Shown piece by piece: positions 1,455 to 10,910 of a DNA stretch of 10,910 nucleotides (its first letter is position 1; each line of letters opens with the position of its first letter). The translations under genes and the position numbers were made by a program. Below the pieces are notes generated by a model. That model was given only the letters and a program-made list of their open reading frames with translations. It made no database searches and had not been told where the DNA came from. Origin of the DNA: a virus (Duplodnaviria > Heunggongvirae > Uroviricota > Caudoviricetes); the IMG/VR virus record IMGVR_UViG_2859827302_000011. The stretch is one strand, 5' to 3'.

Positions 1455-2623
<1,169 letters not shown>

Positions 2624-2948
2624 CCACTTCAGGTCGGTCATGAGCACTAAATTAACCGGCTATGTATGGGATGGTTGCGCTGCATCAGGCATGAAGTTAT
2701 CCAGCGTGGCAATTATGGCCCGCCTGGCTGATTTCAGTAATGACGAAGGTGTGTGCTGGCCATCAATTGAAACCATTGCCCGTCAGATTGGCGCGGGGAT
2801 GAGTACCGTCAGAACGGCTATCGCACGGCTGGAAGCAGAAGGCTGGTTAACGCGTAAGGCGCGTCGCCAGGGTAACCGCAATGCGTCGAATGTTTATCAG
2901 CTTAACGTTGCGAAGCTTCAGGCAGCGGCATTTTCTCAACTGTCAGAT

Positions 2949-3008
2949 TCTGACCCGTCAAAATCTGACGCATCAAAATCTGACCCGTCAAAATTTGATG
3001 CGTCGAAA
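2949..3008 (+). repeat. Four tandem 15-bp direct repeats (tctgacccgtcaaaa / tctgacgcatcaaaa / tctgacccgtcaaaa / tttgatgcgtcgaaa) inside the replication gene; putative origin iterons
   Basis: Direct reading of the sequence; the repeats encode the pentapeptide reiteration SDPSK-SDASK-SDPSK-FDASK. Further CCGTCAG motifs occur at 5482, 5503 and 5527 beyond the IS, followed by an A-rich stretch. The analogy is to the lambda origin, which lies as iterons inside gene O. Confidence 0.5.
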
Positions 3009-3014
3009 TCTGGC

Positions 3015-3022
3015 AAAAAAGC
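3015..3022. repeat. 8-bp target-site duplication (aaaaaagc), left copy, of the IS66-family insertion
   Basis: Identical octamer at 5464-5471 immediately outside the other IS end; 8 bp is the IS66-family duplication length. Confidence 0.85.
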
Positions 3023-3093
3023 GTAAGCGTACAGCCTGAACCGTCTGGTCAGAATCTGACGAATTAGACAAAGTGGTGTCCACCAAATAAGTA

Positions 3094-3495
3094 GTGGGAA
3101 CCAAAGTGTCAGATATGCAGAAAAATGTGAATCCCGGCAGGCGAAAAGGCTGCCCTAATTATCCTCCCGAATTTAAACAGCAGCTCGTTGCTGCCTCCTG
3201 TGAACCCGGGATATCCATCTCAAAACTTGCTCTTGAAAATGGCATTAACGCCAATCTGTTGTTCAAATGGCGACAACAATGGCGCGAGGGAAAGCTGCTA
3301 TTACCTTCTTCAGAGAGCCCCCAGCTACTTCCTGTGACTCTCGATGCAGCTGCCGAACAGCCAGAATCGCTCGCAGAGGATCCGGAAACCCTCAGTATCA
3401 GCTGTGAGGTAACGTTCCGGCACGGGACGCTCCGCTTCAATGGCAATGTCAGCGAAAAGCTCCTGACTCTGCTGATACAGGAACTGAAGCGATGA
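3094..3495 (+). CDS. tnpA: IS66-family TnpA (orf1 accessory protein)
   Basis: First ORF of the IS66-type triplet, with a helix-turn-helix-like segment (PEFKQQLVAASCEPGISISKLALENGINANLLFKWRQQW); its stop overlaps the tnpB start (ATGA at 3492-3495). Start uncertain: GTG at 3094 or ATG at 3115. Confidence 0.75.
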   Translation: MGTKVSDMQKNVNPGRRKGCPNYPPEFKQQLVAASCEPGISISKLALENGINANLLFKWRQQWREGKLLLPSSESPQLLPVTLDAAAEQPESLAEDPETLSISCEVTFRHGTLRFNGNVSEKLLTLLIQELKR

Positions 3496-3839
3496 TCCCG
3501 TTACCTTCCGGGACCAAAATTTGGCTGGTTGCCGGTATCACCGATATGAGAAATGGCTTCAACGGCCTGGCGGCAAAGGTGCAGACGACGCTGAAAGACG
3601 CTCCGATGTCAGGTCACGTTTTTATCTTCCGTGGGCGTAATGGCAGTCAGGTAAAGCTCCTCTGGTCTACCGGCGATGGACTGTGTCTGCTGACCAAACG
3701 GCTGGAGCGCGGCCGCTTCGCCTGGCCGTCAGCCCGGGATGGCAAAGTGTTCCTCACACCGGCACAGCTGGCGATGCTCCTTGAAGGTATCGACTGGCGG
3801 CAGCCTAAAAGACTGCTTACGTCCCTGACTATGTTGTAA
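3492..3839 (+). CDS. tnpB: IS66-family TnpB (orf2)
   Basis: MIPLPSGTKIWLVAGITDMRNGFNGLAAKVQTTLKDAPMSGHVFIFRGRNGSQVKLLWSTGDGLCLLTKRLERGRFAWP is the highly conserved IS66 Orf2 signature. Confidence 0.9.
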   Translation: MIPLPSGTKIWLVAGITDMRNGFNGLAAKVQTTLKDAPMSGHVFIFRGRNGSQVKLLWSTGDGLCLLTKRLERGRFAWPSARDGKVFLTPAQLAMLLEGIDWRQPKRLLTSLTML

Positions 3840-3887
3840 GCCTCTTTATCCTGGTCGACGCTGAATGAGCCTGGTAATATACCCGGT

Positions 3888-5426
3888 ATGAGCAGCTCAC
3901 TTCCTGACGATATCAATGCACTGAAACGTCTCCTTGCCGAACAGGAGGCGCTGAACCGTGCCCTGCTGGAAAAGCTGAACGAGCGTGAACGCGAAATAGA
4001 CCATCTGCAGGCACAGCTGGATAAGCTGCGCCGGATGAACTTCGGCAGCCGCTCCGAAAAAGTCTCCCGTCGTATCGCACAGATGGAAGCTGACCTGAAG
4101 GCACTTCAGAAAGAAAGTGATACCCTTACCGGTCGGGTTGACGACCCGGCCGTGCAGCGCCCGCTGCGTCAAACCCGCACCCGCAAACCGTTCCCCGAAT
4201 CACTCCCCCGCGATGAAAAACGGCTGCTGCCGGCAGCGTCATGCTGCCCGGAATGTGGAGGCTCACTGAGCTATCCGGGTGAGGATGCCGCCGAACAGCT
4301 GGAGTTGATGCGCAGCGTCTTCCGGGTTATCCGGACTGTACGTGAAAAGCATGCCTGTACTCAGTGCGATGCCATCGTGCAGGCCCCCGCGCCTTCACGG
4401 CCCATCGAGCGGGGTATCGCAGGACCGGGGCTGCTGGCCCGCGTGCTGATCTCAAAGTATGCAGAGCACACCCCGCTGTACCGCCAGTCTGAAATGTACG
4501 GCCGCCAGGGCGTGGAGCTGAGTCGTTCACTGCTGTCGGGCTGGGTGGATGCATGCTGCCGGCTACTGTCACCGCTGGAAGAAGCGCTTCAGGATTATGT
4601 GCTGACTGACGGTAAGCTCCATGCTGATGACACGCCTGTCCCGGTGCTGTTGCCAGGCAATAAGAAAACGAAGACCGGGCGGTTATGGACCTACGTTCGT
4701 GACGACCGTAACGCCGGGTCAACGCTGGCGCCGGCGGTGTGGTTCGCTTACAGCCCGGACAGAAAAGGCATCCATCCGCAGACCCATCTTGCGGGGTTCA
4801 GTGGTGTACTGCAGGCGGATGCATACGCCGGGTTCAACGAGCTGTACCGGGATGGCCGGATAACGGAAGCCGCCTGTTGGGCTCACGCCCGCCGTAAAAT
4901 CCACGATGTGCACGTTCGCACCCCGTCAGCCCTGACGGAGGAAGCGCTGAAACGGATCGGCGAACTGTACGCCATCGAGGCAGAGATAAGGGGAATGACG
5001 GCGGAGCAGCGCCTTGCCGAACGTCAGTTGAAAACGAAACCGCTGCTGAAATCCCTGGAAAGCTGGCTGCGTGAAAAGATGAAAACCCTGTCGCGACACT
5101 CAGAACTGGCGAAAGCGTTCGCATACGCCCTGAACCAGTGGCCGGCGCTGACGTACTATGCAGATGATGGCTGGGCTGAGGCGGACAATAACATCGCTGA
5201 AAATGCGTTGCGGATGGTCAGTCTGGGCCGCAAAAACTACCTGTTCTTCGGTTCGGATCATGGAGGAGAGCGGGGAGCGCTGCTGTACAGCCTGATCGGG
5301 ACGTGCAAACTGAACGGAGTGGAGCCAGAAAGCTACCTCCGCTATGTCCTTGACGTCATAGCCGACTGGCCGATAAACCGGGTCGGCGAACTGCTCCCCT
5401 GGCGCGTAGCACTGCCGACTGAATAA
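3888..5426 (+). CDS. tnpC: IS66-family transposase TnpC (orf3)
   Basis: 512 aa with an N-terminal coiled-coil/leucine-zipper region, a CPECGG...CTQCD zinc-finger motif and a DDE-type catalytic region; length and order match IS66 transposases. Confidence 0.9.
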
Positions 5427-5463
5427 CACATCCCCGTCAATACGGTTCTTGCTGCACGCTTAC

Positions 5464-5471
5464 AAAAAAGC
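5464..5471. repeat. 8-bp target-site duplication (aaaaaagc), right copy, of the IS66-family insertion
   Basis: Identical to 3015-3022. Confidence 0.85.
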
Positions 5472-6030
5472 GGGTTTTCACCCGTCAGAATCTGGCGGGG
5501 ATCCGTCAGTAAAATCAAAACATGATCCGTCAGATAAAAAACCTTCTCGTCCGGACGCTTCGCAACCGGACACGCAGACGGCTGAACAGGATTTTTTAAC
5601 TCGCCATCCTGATGCGGTTGTATTCAGCCCTAAAAAGCGCCAGTGGGGGACGCAGGATGATTTGACCTGCGCACAGTGGCTCTGGAAAAAAATCATCGCC
5701 CTGTACGAGCAGGCTGCCGAATGTGACGGCGAGGTGGTTCGTCCCAAAGAACCGAACTGGACAGCCTGGGCAAACGAAATTCGCCTGATGTGTGTACAGG
5801 ATGGCCGTACTCACAAACAAATCTGCGAGATGTACAGCCGCGTCAGCCGCGATCCGTTCTGGTGCCGTAACGTGCTCAGCCCGTCGAAGTTGCGGGAAAA
5901 ATGGGATGAGCTTTCCCTGCGCTTATCGCCGTCCGTCAGCACGCACACAGAAAAACGTGAAGACCCGTACTTCAAAGCCAGTTACGACAACGTGGACTAC
6001 AGCCAGATCCCGGCAGGATTCAGGGGGTGA
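5464..6030 (+). pseudogene. Phage replication initiator (O-like), 3' fragment downstream of the IS66-family insertion
   Basis: Removing 3023-5463 plus one copy of the 8-bp duplication joins ...SGKKA in frame to GFHPSESGGDPSVKSK..., giving one uninterrupted 313-codon ORF (2640..3022 + 5472..6030). The track ORF start at 5449 is a TTG inside the IS66 end and is not a real start. Confidence 0.7.
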
Positions 6031-6032
6031 GC

Positions 6033-6521
6033 ATGAGTCTTTTGAATGACGTTCAGAAATTCATTGAAGCCCATCCGGGGTGTACTTCCGGAGACATTGC
6101 GGATGCTTTTGCAGGTTACTCACGGCAGCGCGTTCTGCAGTCTGCAAGCAAGTTACGTCAGAGTGGGCGTGTGGCTCACCGTTGTGAAGGAGATACACGC
6201 AGACATTTCCCGCGCCTGACTGAGAGAGCGCAGGAACCGGGACCACAATCAGTTCGAGAAACCAGACCTGTGCGCAATTTCTATGTCGGCACTAACGATC
6301 CCCGGGTGATTTTGTGCCTGACCCGCCAGGCTGAAGAACTGGAGTCCAGGGGCTTATACCGTCGTGCTGCAACGGTGTGGATGGCGGCATTCCGTGAAAG
6401 CCACTCCCAGCCAGAACGAAACAATTTTCTGGCGCGTCGTGAGCGGTGCTTACGGAAAAGCAGCAAGCGCGCTGTATCGGGTGATGAGTGGTATCTGTCA
6501 GGGAATTACGTGGGGGCTTAA
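6033..6521 (+). CDS. Hypothetical protein (162 aa), unassigned; sits in the slot after the replication initiator
   Basis: ATG at 6033 preceded by AGGGGG (6022-6027); its stop overlaps the next start (TAATG, 6519-6523). The N-terminal roughly 50 aa (MSLLNDVQKFIEAHPGCTSGDIADAFAGYSRQRVLQSASKLRQSGRV) look winged-helix-like. I do not recognise the family. Confidence 0.5.
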   Translation: MSLLNDVQKFIEAHPGCTSGDIADAFAGYSRQRVLQSASKLRQSGRVAHRCEGDTRRHFPRLTERAQEPGPQSVRETRPVRNFYVGTNDPRVILCLTRQAEELESRGLYRRAATVWMAAFRESHSQPERNNFLARRERCLRKSSKRAVSGDEWYLSGNYVGA

Positions 6522-7174
6522 TGAGTAATAAATATTGCCAGGCGCTGGTGGAGTTGCGAAACAAACCAGCCCATGAACTGAAGGAAGTGGGCGATCAGTG
6601 GCGCACACCGGACAACATTTTCTGGGGAATTAACACCCTGTTTGGCCCGTTTGTTCTGGATCTGTTTACTGACGGTGATAACGCCAAATGTGCCGCGTAT
6701 TACACGGCGGAAGACAACGCGCTGGCGCATGACTGGTCAGAACGTCTTGCGGAGCTTAAAGGTGCTGCCTTTGGAAATCCTCCATACAGCCGCGCCAGTC
6801 AGCATGAGGGGCAATACATCACCGGCATGCGTTACATCATGAAACATGCCAGTGCCATGCGTGATAAGGGCGGGCGCTATGTTTTCCTGATCAAAGCTGC
6901 CACCAGCGAAGTGTGGTGGCCGGAAGATGCGGATCATATTGCTTTTATTCGCGGGCGTATTGGTTTTGAACTGCCTGCCTGGTTTATCCCGAAAGACGAG
7001 AAGCAGGTGCCAACCGGTGCTTTCTTCGCTGGTGCTATTGCCGTTTTCGACAAGACCTGGAAGGGACCGGCAATCAGCTACATCGGGCGCGATGAACTTG
7101 AGGCATGTGGTGAGGCCTTTCTGGCGCAAGTTCGCCAGCAGGCAGAAAAACTTGTCAGGGAGATGGCGGCATGA
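6521..7174 (+). CDS. Phage DNA N6-adenine methyltransferase (Dam-like)
   Basis: Contains the amino-methyltransferase catalytic motif NPPY (AFGNPPYS); size and position match the methyltransferase commonly found in lambdoid nin regions; start overlaps the upstream stop and its own stop overlaps the next start (ATGA at 7171-7174). Confidence 0.7.
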   Translation: MSNKYCQALVELRNKPAHELKEVGDQWRTPDNIFWGINTLFGPFVLDLFTDGDNAKCAAYYTAEDNALAHDWSERLAELKGAAFGNPPYSRASQHEGQYITGMRYIMKHASAMRDKGGRYVFLIKAATSEVWWPEDADHIAFIRGRIGFELPAWFIPKDEKQVPTGAFFAGAIAVFDKTWKGPAISYIGRDELEACGEAFLAQVRQQAEKLVREMAA

Positions 7175-7497
7175 CGACGTTAACTCAATGCCAGCAGCAG
7201 GTGCTGGATATGCTGATTTCTTACCAGAAAGAACGTGGCTTCCCGCCAACCAATCAGGAGGTGGCAACCATGCTGGGATACCGTTCAGTGAATGCAGCGG
7301 TGGAGCATCTTAGAGCACTGGAGAAAAAAGGCGTCATCACGATAAAGCGTGGTGTGGCCCGTGGTATCACTCTTCATACCGCGGTGAAGGACGACGACAG
7401 CGAGGCGGTCGGGATTATCCGCTCACTGCTTGCCGGTGAGGAAAACGCCAGGCTGCGTGCAGCCCACTGGTTACATGAGAGGGGCCTGAAAGTATGA
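7171..7497 (+). CDS. LexA N-terminal DNA-binding-domain homolog lacking the S24 peptidase/dimerisation domain (108 aa)
   Basis: LTQCQQQVLDMLISYQKERGFPPTNQEVATMLGYRSVNAAVEHLRALEKKGVITIKRGVARGITL aligns by eye with the E. coli LexA N-terminus ([65 protein letters not shown], from memory). The protein ends about 40 residues later, with no Ala-Gly cleavage site or Ser/Lys dyad region. Confidence 0.8.
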   Translation: MTTLTQCQQQVLDMLISYQKERGFPPTNQEVATMLGYRSVNAAVEHLRALEKKGVITIKRGVARGITLHTAVKDDDSEAVGIIRSLLAGEENARLRAAHWLHERGLKV

Positions 7498-7883
7498 AGC
7501 TAATACTGCCTTTTCCGCCCAGCGTGAACACGTACTGGCGACACCCCAACAAAGGGGCGTTTGCTGGTAAGAGCCTGATAAGCGCAGCGGGGCGCAAATT
7601 CCAGAGCGCGGCGTGTGCAGCAATAGTTGAGCAGTTACGTCGTCTGCCAAAACCAACGTCGGCACCTGCTTCAGTGGAGATCGTGTTGTTTCCTCCGGAT
7701 AACCGGATCCGCGATCTGAACAACTATAACAAGGCGCTGTTTGACGCCCTGACCCACGCGGGTGTGTGGGAAGACGACAGTCAGGTGAAAAGAATGCTGG
7801 TGGAGTGGGGACCGGTTATCCCGGAAGGGAAGGTCGAGATCACTATCAGTAAGTACGAGAAACCGGCGGGTGCAGCAGCCTGA
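7494..7883 (+). CDS. rusA: RusA-family Holliday junction resolvase
   Basis: LILPFPPSVNTYWRH and RDLNNYNKALFDALTHAGVWEDDSQV match the RusA motifs (ITLPWPPSNNRYYRH ... [26 protein letters not shown], from memory); start overlaps the upstream stop (ATGA). Confidence 0.9.
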   Translation: MKLILPFPPSVNTYWRHPNKGAFAGKSLISAAGRKFQSAACAAIVEQLRRLPKPTSAPASVEIVLFPPDNRIRDLNNYNKALFDALTHAGVWEDDSQVKRMLVEWGPVIPEGKVEITISKYEKPAGAAA

Positions 7884-7902
7884 TTAAGAGGAGAAACGAA
7901 GT

Positions 7903-8700
7903 ATGAATAATCTGATGGTTATTGATGGAATTGAAGTTCGTCGTGATGCTTATGGGCGTTACAGCCTGAACGATCTGCACAGGGCTGCTGGTTCTCTGGA
8001 TAAGCATAAGCCTGCATTCTGGCTCCGCAATGAGCAAACTGAACGTTTAATAAGCGAGTTGCAGATTTGCAACTCGGTCAATATAGAACCAGTTAACGTT
8101 ATTCGTGGCGGAAATAACCAAGGGACGTATGTCTGCAAAGAACTGGTGTATGCCTATGCAATGTGGATCAGCCCGTCATTCCATCTGAAGGTGATCCGTA
8201 CTTTCGACATGGTAACCAGTGCACCGGAAAAATTATCCGGACAGGCTGCTGACAAGATGCAGGCTGGTGTGATTCTGCTGGACTTTATGCGCCGGGAATT
8301 AAACCTGTCTAACTCTTCAGTGCTTGGAGCCTGTCAGAAACTCCAGGAGGCTGTTGGCTTACCGAATCTGGCACCGCGCTATGCCATTGATGCTCCTGCT
8401 GACGCGCCTGATGGCTCAAGCCGCCCCACGCTGTCACTGAGTGCACTGCTGAAGCAGTATGGTATCCGCCTTACGGCTAATCAGGCATATCACCAGATGG
8501 CGAAGCTGGGGATCGTCGAACAGCGCGAACGATACAGCCGTACAGCGATTAACAACATCAAAAAATTCTGGTCGCTGACAGCGAAAGGCTGCATGTTCGG
8601 CAAGAATATCACCAGTCCCGCAAATCCGCGTGAGACGCAGCCGCATTTCTTCGAATCCCGATTCCCTGAGCTGTTAAAGCTGCTCGATACCGTTCATTGA
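7903..8700 (+). CDS. KilA-N domain protein (Roi/antirepressor-like), 265 aa
   Basis: The N-terminal region (MVIDGIEVRRDAYGRYSLNDLHRAAG...KPAFWLRNEQTERLISEL...YVCKELVYAYAMWISPSFHLKVIRTFD) has the KilA-N fold signature; an AGGAG ribosome-binding site precedes the ATG at 7903; this is the usual position for a roi-like gene in a lambdoid nin region. Confidence 0.7.
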   Translation: MNNLMVIDGIEVRRDAYGRYSLNDLHRAAGSLDKHKPAFWLRNEQTERLISELQICNSVNIEPVNVIRGGNNQGTYVCKELVYAYAMWISPSFHLKVIRTFDMVTSAPEKLSGQAADKMQAGVILLDFMRRELNLSNSSVLGACQKLQEAVGLPNLAPRYAIDAPADAPDGSSRPTLSLSALLKQYGIRLTANQAYHQMAKLGIVEQRERYSRTAINNIKKFWSLTAKGCMFGKNITSPANPRETQPHFFESRFPELLKLLDTVH

Positions 8701-8701
8701 G

Positions 8702-9697
8702 GTGACCGTGAGAGCACTACTGCCCCCTGAAATTGCCCCGCGTATGGGGATCGTATTGTTCAGACCAGGTTCAGAGCTGATGCCCCTGTTTATGCAGGGG
8801 CGTGTCCTGCTGGAGCCTGAGCCGGAACGTTATTCATCTTTCGCCAGTGGTGCTGTTCCGGCGGCATCACAACCGCTGGCGGATGATCCTGACGTTCGGG
8901 CCGTGTTCCGCAATGAGGCAGTGATCCGTCGTGCTGGTGGCGTGGAATGTCTTGAAAGCTGGTTACTTCGTGAAAAAGGCTGCCAGTGGCCTCATTCCGA
9001 CTGGCACAGCGAGAACATGACAACAATGCGACACGCGCCGGGCGCAATCCGTCTGTGCTGGCACTGCGATAACCAGCTGCGCGATCAGTTCACGGAACGG
9101 CTGGAATCAATGGCAACGGATAACTGTGCCCGCTGGGTGTTGTCTGTTGTGCGTCGGGATCTCGGTTTTGATGATAGTCACGTTGTGACAATGCCGGAAC
9201 TGTGCTGGTGGCTGATTCGTAATGACCTGGCGGATGCCTTACCGGAAAGTGCAGCCCGTAAGGCACTGAGATTACCGAAGCCTGTTGTGCCGTCTGTCAC
9301 CCGGGAAAGTGACCTTGTGCCTTCGGTTCCTGCCACCAGCATCATCCAGGATAAGGTGAAAAAGGTGCTGGCGCTGAAAGTGGATCCGGAGTCGCCGGAG
9401 TCTTTTATGTTACGCCCAAAACGTCGCCGCTGGGTTAATGAAAAGTACACACGCTGGGTTAAGACACAGCCGTGTGCATGTTGTGGAAAGCCTGCTGATG
9501 ATCCCCTCCACCTGATAGGCCACGGTCAGGGGGGAATGGGTACAAAAGCGCATGACCTCTTTGTGTTGCCTTTGTGCAGAAAGCATCACGACGAGCTGCA
9601 TGCGGATACCGTGGCATTTGAAGAGAAGTATGGTTCCCAGCTGGAGCTGATATTTCGTTTTATCGATCGTGCGCTGGCAATAGGCGTACTGGCGTAA
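8702..9697 (+). CDS. DUF968-like prophage protein with a C-terminal HNH-like Cys/His motif
   Basis: The C-terminus carries CACCGKPADDPLHLIGHGQGG...LPLCRKHHDELHAD, an HNH-like metal-binding arrangement, and resembles the prophage protein family that includes Qin YdfU (recollection, not searched). Start ambiguous: GTG at 8702 or 8708, or ATG at 8744. Confidence 0.6.
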   Translation: MTVRALLPPEIAPRMGIVLFRPGSELMPLFMQGRVLLEPEPERYSSFASGAVPAASQPLADDPDVRAVFRNEAVIRRAGGVECLESWLLREKGCQWPHSDWHSENMTTMRHAPGAIRLCWHCDNQLRDQFTERLESMATDNCARWVLSVVRRDLGFDDSHVVTMPELCWWLIRNDLADALPESAARKALRLPKPVVPSVTRESDLVPSVPATSIIQDKVKKVLALKVDPESPESFMLRPKRRRWVNEKYTRWVKTQPCACCGKPADDPLHLIGHGQGGMGTKAHDLFVLPLCRKHHDELHADTVAFEEKYGSQLELIFRFIDRALAIGVLA

Positions 9698-9710
9698 GTG
9701 GAGAACGAGC

Positions 9711-10463
9711 ATGAACCTTGAAGCCTTACCGAAATATTACTCCCCGAAATCTCCAAAACTGAGCGATGACGCACCGGCGACAGGCTCTGGTGGTTTAACG
9801 ATTACGGATGTGATGGCTGCGCAGGGGATGGTGCAGTCGAAAGCACCGCTTGGGTTTGCCTTATTCCTGGCAAAAGTTGGTGTTCAGGATCCTCAGTTTG
9901 CGATTGAAGGTCTGCTCAATTACGCGATGGCACTGGATAACCCGACATTGAATAAATTGAGTGAAGAAACCCGGCTACAGATCATTCCTTACCTTGTGAA
10001 TTTTGCCTTTGCTGATTATTCTAGGTCTGCGGCAAGTAAGGCTCGCTGTGAGCATTGTGCTGGTACTGGATTTCATAATGTATTGCGCGAGGTGGTGAAA
10101 CACTCCAGAAGCGGGGAATCTGTTATCAAGGAAGAGTGGGTGAAGGAACTATGTCAGCATTGTCATGGTAAGGGAGAAGTCAGCACAGCGTGCAGAGGGT
10201 GTAAGGGTAAAGGTATTGTCCTGGATGAAAAAAGGACCCGGCTTCATGGCACGCCTGTTTATAAGATTTGTGGGCGTTGCAATGGAAACCGGTTTAGCCG
10301 TTTACCAACTACACTGGCACGACGTCATGTCCAGAAGCTGGTTCCAGACCTGACTGATTATCAGTGGTACAAAGGATATGCAGACGTAATTGATAAACTA
10401 GTAACAAAGTGCTGGCAGGAAGAAGCATATGCTGAAACACAATTGAGAAAGGTGACGAGATAA
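9711..10463 (+). CDS. Q: Late-gene antiterminator Q, phage 82 / QuuQ type (250 aa)
   Basis: The N-terminus (KYYSPKSPKLSDDAPATGSGGLTITDVMAAQGM) and C-terminus (LTDYQWYKGYADVIDKLVTKCWQEEAYAETQLRKVTR) match phage 82 Q as I recall it; central Cys-rich zinc-binding region; ribosome-binding site GGAGAA upstream; followed by a promoter-terminator pair in the expected late-promoter position. Confidence 0.85.
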   Translation: MNLEALPKYYSPKSPKLSDDAPATGSGGLTITDVMAAQGMVQSKAPLGFALFLAKVGVQDPQFAIEGLLNYAMALDNPTLNKLSEETRLQIIPYLVNFAFADYSRSAASKARCEHCAGTGFHNVLREVVKHSRSGESVIKEEWVKELCQHCHGKGEVSTACRGCKGKGIVLDEKRTRLHGTPVYKICGRCNGNRFSRLPTTLARRHVQKLVPDLTDYQWYKGYADVIDKLVTKCWQEEAYAETQLRKVTR

Positions 10464-10523: not shown

Positions 10524-10569
10524 TTTCTCAACGATGGGCTTTGTATGTCTGCCGTTGATAATTTTCACG

Positions 10570-10596
10570 AACCCGCTGTTGAGCGGGTTTTTATTT
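10570..10596 (+). terminator. Rho-independent terminator (putative tR')
   Basis: Perfect 8-bp stem aacccgct / agcgggtt (10570-10577 and 10582-10589) with a 4-nt loop, followed by tttttattt. Confidence 0.7.
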
Positions 10597-10601
10597 ACTT
10601 G

Positions 10602-10910
10602 GGTAATGACTCCAACTTACTGATAGTGTTTTATGTTCAGATAATGCCCGATGACCTTGTCATGCAGCTCCACCGATTTTGAGAACGACAGTGACTTCCG
10701 TCCCAGCCTTGCCAGATGTTGTCTCAGATTCAGATTATGTCGCTCAATGCGCTGAGTGTAACGCTTGCTGATAACGTGCAGCTTTCCCTTCAGGCGTGAT
10801 TCATACAGCGGCCAGCCATCCGTCATCCATACCACGACCTCAAAGGCCGACAGCAGGCTCAGAAGACGCTCCAGTGTGGCCAGAGTGCGTTCACCGAAGA
10901 CGTGCGCCAC
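10602..10910 (-). mobile_element. IS1: IS1 insertion sequence, copy B (only the first 309 bp are in the window), same orientation as copy A
   Basis: Starts with the IS1 terminal repeat GGTAATGACTCCAAC (10602-10616); 10617-10910 is identical to 1-294. Confidence 0.95.
10617..10910 (-). CDS. insB: IS1 InsB reading frame, 3' portion (cut by window edge)
   Basis: The 97-aa translation is identical to the C-terminal part of the InsB frame of copy A. Confidence 0.85.

Follow-up and report, generated by a model that had tools for sequence, protein, structure and literature searches.

LexA requires its C-terminal domain for dimerisation on DNA. The S119A version of the protein is non-cleavable (bioRxiv 2020.07.14.201889), and repression at LexA operators is recovered when the DNA-binding domain is fused to proteins that interact with each other, the principle behind two-hybrid assays (PMC12369361). 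A phage-encoded truncated LexA homologue has been described in the Bacillus tectivirus GIL01, where gp6, a protein of 66 amino acids encoded in an early operon and made after SOS induction, needs K38 of its recognition helix, binds the non-SOS palindrome GaCACAnnTGTGaC and activates a late promoter (PMC6182141). LexA also acts in the Gifsy prophages, which are induced through a LexA-controlled operon comprising dinI, an antirepressor gene and irsA (PMC3121763). Here, a LexA-like gene found in the IMG/VR virus record IMGVR_UViG_2859827302_000011 (10,910 nucleotides; this whole stretch is referred to as the window) is compared with these systems. Its product combines a genuine LexA N-terminal domain with a conserved two-helix tail and lacks the S24 autocleavage domain. 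We tentatively read this protein as a RecA-insensitive LexA surrogate that would act at SOS-type boxes after induction.

The LexA-like gene corresponds to an open reading frame (ORF) at positions 7171..7497 on the plus strand that begins with ATG, ends with TGA and encodes 108 residues, with GGAG being found 8 nucleotides 5' of the start codon. In Pfam, residues 1-65 match all of PF01726 (LexA_DNA_bind; positions 1-65 of 65) with E = 2.9e-19 and a score of 69 bits, the cut-off for this family being 23.7 bits. When PDB sequences were searched, the significant matches were all to LexA (1lea, E = 7e-16; 1jhh and 3jso, E = 1.6e-15). An AlphaFold2 model of the monomer, with a mean predicted local distance difference test score (pLDDT) of 81, was placed by Foldseek on DNA-bound E. 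coli LexA (3jso_B) with a root-mean-square deviation of 1.0 Å over 68 columns and 50% identity, while generic MarR, GntR and DtxR winged helices were orders of magnitude worse matches than LexA. The LexA-type winged helix-turn-helix (HTH) supported by Pfam, AlphaFold2 and Foldseek occupies residues 1-68 (7171..7374, plus strand) and was modelled as helices at residues 6-22, 28-35 and 40-52 and strands at residues 56-58 and 66-68. The recognition helix region, SVNAAVEHLRALEK, was assigned from the sequence and alignments to residues 39-52 (7285..7326, plus strand). It is thus confirmed, at a level well above chance, that residues 1-68 are a genuine LexA N-terminal domain and not a generic winged helix, as a preliminary description of this DNA had claimed for some 65 residues. 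That description also had the protein stopping at 108 residues without an S24 domain; indeed, no Pfam match to Peptidase_S24 was detected in the LexA-like protein, which is too short to house such a domain. Lacking the S24 autocleavage domain, the protein cannot cleave itself in response to activated RecA, and the insensitivity to RecA-stimulated self-cleavage proposed earlier is accordingly upheld.

The DNA-binding domain is followed by an acidic linker at residues 69-74 (7375..7392, plus strand), modelled by AlphaFold2 with low confidence (pLDDT below 50 at residues 71-74, which are disordered), and by a two-helix tail at residues 75-108 (7393..7494, plus strand), defined by conservation among relatives and by the model. 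The tail helices, at residues 75-87 and 93-102, were modelled with pLDDT values of 86-89. An exhaustive HMMER search revealed tail-bearing relatives at 42-52% identity in Enterobacteriaceae only, namely, in Cronobacter, Kosakonia, Enterobacter, Cedecea, Klebsiella, Salmonella and Citrobacter. The tail is retained down to this level of identity, with L86, A97 and L101 being invariant or nearly so and position 100 usually being aromatic. We infer that this conserved 35-residue element, missed by the preliminary description, likely takes the place of the LexA C-terminal domain, serving in dimerisation or partner binding and so substituting for the dimerisation function of that domain. Such a domain-plus-dimeriser design is functionally plausible because LexA-domain fusions to unrelated interacting modules repress LexA operators; dimerisation through the tail would make the protein a natural version of the two-hybrid constructs.

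The absence of a cleavage site, as originally asserted, calls for one refinement. The phmmer alignment of the LexA-like protein to LexA reaches residue 90, that is, into the LexA linker and cleavage-site strand, and A88-G89 does align opposite the A84-G85 cleavage bond of LexA, being modelled by AlphaFold2 where a helix gives way to the next loop. Relatives, however, carry AN or VG at this position (as in LLANEE and LLVGEE), and the catalytic domain is lacking. A retained LexA cleavage site at A88-G89 is not supported, given that AG is not conserved among relatives.

The residues through which LexA contacts DNA were drawn from secondary sources (PMC11442139; PMC3091678; bioRxiv 2020.07.14.201889). 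In E. coli LexA, CTGT is read chiefly by S39, N41, A42 and E45, according to a review of LexA structures (PMC11442139), with an older summary naming E44 as a further DNA-contacting residue (PMC3091678). In a single-molecule study, N41 and E45 are described as touching bases and R28 as touching the backbone, and earlier work is cited in which E45K LexA loses specific binding (bioRxiv 2020.07.14.201889). In phmmer and MAFFT alignments, S39 (7285-7287), N41 (7291-7293), A42 (7294-7296) and E45 (7303-7305) of the window protein are identical to their LexA counterparts, whereas V44 (7300-7302) stands for E44 and N28 (7252-7254) for R28. Conservation of the DNA contacts, on which the preliminary description depended, therefore holds for the four base-reading residues and fails for R28 and E44. 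All four reading residues are kept in five of 11 subfamilies (the window type, P0129, P0131, P0137 and P0159). Across distant relatives, S39, R64, G65, I66, K53 and Q8 are invariant and N41 is nearly so, the DNA-facing surface being the best-conserved part of the protein.

The LexA-like protein is a full-length match to phrog_362, labelled 'transcriptional repressor' (E = 1.4e-59; residues 1-108 versus profile positions 1-106 of 106), and is named 'LexA family transcriptional regulator' in RefSeq, where clusters are 97-98% identical. Copies at this same level of identity (97-98%) are present in 50 phage records, including those of Stx2a and Stx2c phages, Shigella phage SfIV and PhiR49_1, under the labels 'repressor, lexA family', 'LexA-like protein' or 'transcriptional repressor'. 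A protein search with the distant member P0172 as query also reached SfII, SfV, mEp460 and phage cdtI. The gene was detected in 2233 of 5426 complete E. coli genomes (approximately 40%), in up to four copies each, as well as in at least 576 IMG/VR stretches, among them loci encoding 100% identical proteins. The object is hence not new but catalogued and extremely common. Among the HMMER matches, P0132, P0148, P0186 and P0211, of 220-350 residues, present two LexA_DNA_bind stretches and the helix motif SPNGVMCH, and appear to constitute a separate family with tandem LexA-type domains.

Examination of loci encoding such proteins revealed two architectures. In type A, seen in the window, the E. 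coli type, Enterobacter, Citrobacter, Cronobacter and locus L099, a cleavable CI with a Peptidase_S24 domain is found, and the LexA-like gene lies within the early-right operon, where its start and stop codons overlap those of its neighbours. In type B, seen in Klebsiella, Salmonella and Cedecea/Enterobacter (operons at L093 513-1518, L094 7561-8357 and L097 5560-6408), the gene is preceded by a terminator and then a promoter, in which a near-consensus SOS box is located 440-508 bp 5' of the start of the LexA-like gene. The order past the box is dinI (in Klebsiella only), an ORF of 75-82 residues with a GTG start (phrog_1813), and an N-terminally extended LexA-like gene. In L094 and L097, where the immunity region is visible, the phage repressor is short and lacks an S24 domain. 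A second operator co-varying with helix 3 was considered for the three type B promoters and rejected, with only the SOS box and the -35 region being common to them, such that the boxes look like host-LexA sites. Because three divergent subfamilies present the gene behind a near-consensus SOS box, once together with dinI, the family is tied to SOS control, into which it has been wired repeatedly.

The type B relatives share with the Gifsy operon the terminator, the SOS box, the optional dinI, a small GTG-start ORF and a third gene. They differ in that the third Gifsy gene product, IrsA, is a DUF1367 protein unrelated to the LexA-like protein, while the window copy lies outside any such operon. 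The possibility that IrsA is itself the LexA-like protein was thus rejected, since Gifsy-2 STM1020 corresponds to DUF1367 (E = 4e-98) and shows no similarity. The phrog_1813 product occupies the position of the Gifsy antirepressor and is, by this analogy, a candidate antirepressor; BLASTP detected no similarity between it and GftA.

Two further observations were made in type B loci. On the minus strand of L094 (11794-13390), a Salmonella prophage, Pfam matches to Cas1 (PF01867) and an AcrVA2-like protein (PF26125) adjoin between the late methylase and lysis genes. In L097 (Cedecea/Enterobacter), a minus-strand insert at 3863-5232, 5' of the SOS-controlled operon, contains two genes, one for a toxin of the bacterial RNase A-like type and the other, with a faint CdiI_2 match, possibly an immunity gene.

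To survey SOS boxes, four complete genomes of carrier phages and 78 related IMG/VR loci were scanned by spacing. Near-consensus SOS boxes were found in 41 of the 78 loci, at three recurrent sites. The first, TACTGTTTTTA[CT]ATACAGTA (for example, TACTGTTTTTATATACAGTA), falls within the coding sequence of one cI allele family, in the part for the linker that joins HTH to S24, and was seen in 24 of the 67 loci with enough upstream flank. It is found at 6410-6425 in L002 (the cI gene of Stx2a_1447) and at 836-855 in L099, and in the IMG/VR loci lies at -2.9 to -4.5 kb from the LexA-like gene. A cI of about 70% identity keeps the core of this box even though the encoded residues differ (TVYKNS versus TVFINS), suggesting selection on the DNA; the box might serve as a roadblock or in the control of an internal or antisense promoter. 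The second box, GATACTGTATTTATGAACAGT (TACTGTATTTATGAACAGT), is found in five loci, where 160 bp separate rusA from a variant KilA-N gene, an arrangement seen in SfIV (L003 32641-32656) and PhiR49_1 (L004 9939-9954); the KilA-N allele of the window is 68% identical to the boxed allele, with a different N-terminal part and no upstream SOS box. The third, AATACTGTAAAAATAAACAGTG (TACTGTAAAAATAAACAGTG), found in 18 loci, lies over the start codon of a late-region DNA methylase, as at L014 5454-5473 and L094 10739-10758, with this N6/N4 methylase being encoded downstream of Q in E. coli and Salmonella prophages.

The genes that travel with the LexA-like gene were identified from up to 78 related IMG/VR loci. 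RusA was linked to the LexA-like gene in 78 of 78 loci, and the KilA-N and DUF968 genes were always co-inherited with it. A PerC-like gene was linked in 73-75 of 76 loci and the Dam-type methyltransferase in about 50 of 76, being absent in SfIV, while the Q allele of the window was seen in 23 of 68 loci. In the window, the TGA of the phage Dam-type N6-adenine methyltransferase gene (6488..7174, plus strand) overlaps the ATG of the LexA-like gene and the stop codon of the latter overlaps the ATG of the RusA Holliday-junction resolvase gene (7494..7883, plus strand), each as a 4-bp ATGA. The coupled operon with methyltransferase and RusA reported earlier is thus present in the window, although the linkage conserved across loci is that with RusA, KilA-N and DUF968, unlike that with Dam. 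The KilA-N domain gene (7903..8700, plus strand) begins 20 bp past RusA and is followed by a DUF968/HNH-like gene (8702..9697, plus strand).

The DNA that is always co-inherited spans window positions of approximately 7200-9700 (LexA-like, RusA, KilA-N and DUF968), plus the PerC-like gene. Coding sequence fills it almost entirely, the gaps measuring 19, 1 and 13 bp, and this block in the window revealed neither a palindromic operator nor an internal promoter. Without intergenic room or a palindrome, a private operator would have nowhere obvious to travel. At the same time, proteins 99-100% identical to that of the window occur with differing immunity, Q and virion modules, and the four carrier phages with whole genomes likewise have differing virion modules. 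Because the co-inherited block contains no operator and near-identical proteins are found in such mosaic phages, a host-type SOS box, present in every host and in a good number of the phages, would be the only operator reliably available. As an argument from absence, mosaicism therefore favours a surrogate-LexA role for the window type.

An apparent enrichment of ACAG-N14-CTGT in the four carrier phages (14 occurrences versus 2.1 expected) was rejected, as the occurrences fall at the same homologous coding positions in yfdQ, ymfL and ymfM, scored again in each phage and hence not independent. In three carrier phages, an extended palindrome, CCCACAGC-N12-GCTGTGGG, was noted in a ymfM-like gene just 5' of the replication gene (L003 30219-30248; L004 6867-6896; L005 29155-29184), and the similar sequence CCACAG-N14-CTGTGG is found at 7650 in Stx2a_1447.

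How a RecA-insensitive LexA surrogate might work can be outlined as follows. Having no promoter of its own, the LexA-like gene would be translated within the early-right (PR-type) operon, and in an intact phage its product would not appear until induction, at which point the LexA of the host has just been destroyed. The helical hairpin of the tail would dimerise the protein in place of the S24 domain, and the dimer would presumably occupy LexA-type operators (CTGT-N8-ACAG). Targets would include the SOS boxes of carrier prophages, the host SOS regulon and possibly LexA-controlled genes of co-resident prophages. The outcome, more probably repression than activation, would be a restored block that activated RecA cannot lift. 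The role of uncleavable SOS repressor, as put forward in the preliminary description, is in this respect plausible.

Several findings weigh against this reading. The predicted template modelling score of the AlphaFold2 model is only 0.54, rendering the placement of the tail relative to the domain uncertain. The preliminary description had looked to SOS boxes as targets, yet no exact CTGT-N8-ACAG is present in the window, where six one-mismatch matches were found versus 4.3 expected, all with GC-rich spacers and none LexA-like. No SOS box was seen in the flanks of 37 of the 78 related loci, nor in those of three of four type A loci from other subfamilies. R28 and E44, moreover, are both replaced in every tail-bearing relative, the 28/44 pairs being N/V, Q/T, Y/F, Y/F, M/A, T/A, V/A, L/L and I/F. 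By comparison, both R28 and E44 are found in nearly all of those top HMMER matches whose helix is of the LexA type (SxNAAE[EDQ]H). The loss of R28 and E44 thus looks like a coupled swap of a polar pair for a mostly non-polar contact, which would mark the family without altering how bases are read. At least one base-reading residue is nevertheless changed in six of 11 subfamilies (A42T with E45G; E45D; A42G; E45L; A42T with E45I; N41Y). Enterobacteriaceae share one common SOS box, so that altered reading residues in six subfamilies from such hosts mean that SOS-box recognition is not a family-wide rule; changes of this sort would look like diversifying, phage-specific operators. Finally, literature searches aimed at the phrog_362-type family found no functional study of it, with PMC9621596 concerning host LexA boxes at endolysin promoters.

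It is accordingly possible, if rather unlikely, that the protein is a phage-specific transcription factor that has drifted from SOS boxes in the manner of gp6 and employs operators of its own to repress or activate phage genes, for instance to time the RusA/KilA-N/DUF968/Q block or late functions. Beyond the precedent of late-promoter activation by gp6 from a non-SOS palindrome (PMC6182141), this would be in keeping with the variation of helix-3 specificity positions among subfamilies of a single host family, the family-wide loss of E44 and R28, the carrier loci that lack any SOS box, and the location of the gene in carrier loci, always just 5' of the late regulator Q. Arguing the other way, the window-type protein keeps all four LexA base-reading residues, three of which are changed in gp6; the always co-inherited DNA offers neither a conserved palindrome nor intergenic space; phages whose immunity, Q and late modules are unrelated carry almost the same protein; and no second, co-varying site is common to the SOS-controlled promoters of the three divergent relatives. 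Nor is the gp6 site present in the window. When GaCACAnnTGTGaC was sought there, two matches were obtained at two mismatches, one at an insertion sequence (IS) border and the other inside the DUF968 gene, a result equalled by 15 of 200 shuffles, and the gp6 operator was rejected as having no significant match.

A different concern is whether the window copy is made at all. The gene and its neighbours belong to the early-right (nin-type) region of a lambdoid prophage that IS elements have shattered. Upstream of the methyltransferase lies the PerC-like (YfdN-type) gene (6027..6521, plus strand), and at the other end a Q-type late antiterminator gene (9711..10463, plus strand) closes the early-right operon and is followed by a strong intrinsic terminator (10569..10590, plus strand). 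IS1 copies are found at both ends of the window, that on the right (10617-10910) severing the late region from 10617 on. The upstream part (579-1398) carries, out of order, genes for a holin of the LydA type and a truncated endolysin. An O-like replication gene is in two pieces, 2553-3026 and 5449-6030, owing to insertions of an IS3-family (1419-2623) and an IS66-family (3094-5426) element. The window lacks the immunity region and PR, no promoter-like site was found in the window 5' of the LexA-like gene, and no complete E. coli genome shares the gene and IS arrangement of the window. Cut off from the early promoter, the copy may be silent, and its expression in this prophage is uncertain. That it is simply an intact, unexpressed passenger of a dead prophage with no current function is, however, improbable: the ORF is intact, 100% identical proteins are encoded in IMG/VR loci, and outward transcription from the IS elements is possible. 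In any case, this explanation concerns expression only and is compatible with any mechanism.

A role in protein-protein contact or as a decoy, engaging RecA filaments, host LexA or repair proteins such as RusA rather than repressing specific sequences, is highly improbable; RusA linkage with translational coupling in 78 of 78 loci, a tail that could be a partner-binding peptide, and the one relative that adjoins dinI, the gene for DinI, which binds RecA filaments, would suit such a role, but the DNA-facing surface is the best-conserved part of the protein, RusA is absent downstream of the gene in the Klebsiella subfamily, and no LexA N-terminal domain is known to act without DNA.

If the surrogate-LexA reading and, with it, SOS-box binding are true, a common prophage gene would switch off the host DNA-damage response despite active RecA. 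The broader claim, namely, that a gene found in some 40% of complete E. coli genomes, with Stx2 phages and Shigella serotype-converting phages among its carriers, encodes a natural LexA that is proof against RecA and re-closes the SOS regulon and LexA-controlled loci after induction, is doubtful. Were it correct, the loci re-closed could include the antirepressor operons of rival prophages and the SOS box in the phage's own cI, such that commitment to lysis would be secured, competitors silenced and SOS mutagenesis curbed. In relatives with a non-cleavable main repressor, the LexA-like protein would provide built-in negative feedback on the LexA-controlled induction operon. Such activity would bear on the induction dynamics of Shiga-toxin phages, on SOS mutagenesis, on antibiotic tolerance in lysogens and on competition among co-resident prophages with LexA-controlled antirepressors. 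The protein would, moreover, be a natural counterpart of engineered LexA-domain fusions and, beside GIL01 gp6, a second independent capture of a LexA domain by phages. Should the protein act at private sites instead, it would be one more small phage regulator, of ordinary interest.

In comparison with E. coli LexA, the window protein presents the same fold, approximately 50% identity over 68 residues, S39, N41, A42 and E45, and the wing residues R64-G65-I66. It differs in being phage-borne, in bearing N28 and V44, and in having a 35-residue two-helix tail in place of the S24 protease and dimerisation domain with its Ser119/Lys156 dyad. Its gene in the window has neither its own promoter nor an SOS box; an autoregulatory SOS-box promoter of the LexA type, absent here, is present in the Klebsiella, Salmonella and Cedecea-type relatives. 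With non-cleavable LexA (Ind-) and fusions of LexA(1-87) to a dimeriser, the protein would share a LexA domain that is dimeric without an active S24 domain and ignores activated RecA (PMC12369361). Those, however, are laboratory constructs with wild-type DNA-binding residues, whereas the window protein is natural, is changed at R28 and E44, and is dimeric only by inference. GIL01 gp6 is likewise a phage-encoded LexA N-terminal domain without the protease. It lacks the tail, and its recognition helix, SHKTAHRY, places K, T and R at LexA positions 41, 42 and 45, with K38 of gp6 aligning to N41 of the window protein, the residue also present in LexA. The two proteins are only 35% identical in a MAFFT alignment, the window protein being closer to E. 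coli LexA at about 50%, BLASTP yields no alignment between them, and their relationship rests on the shared Pfam domain. Nonetheless, gp6, from a Bacillus LexA, and the window protein are independent captures of a host LexA domain.

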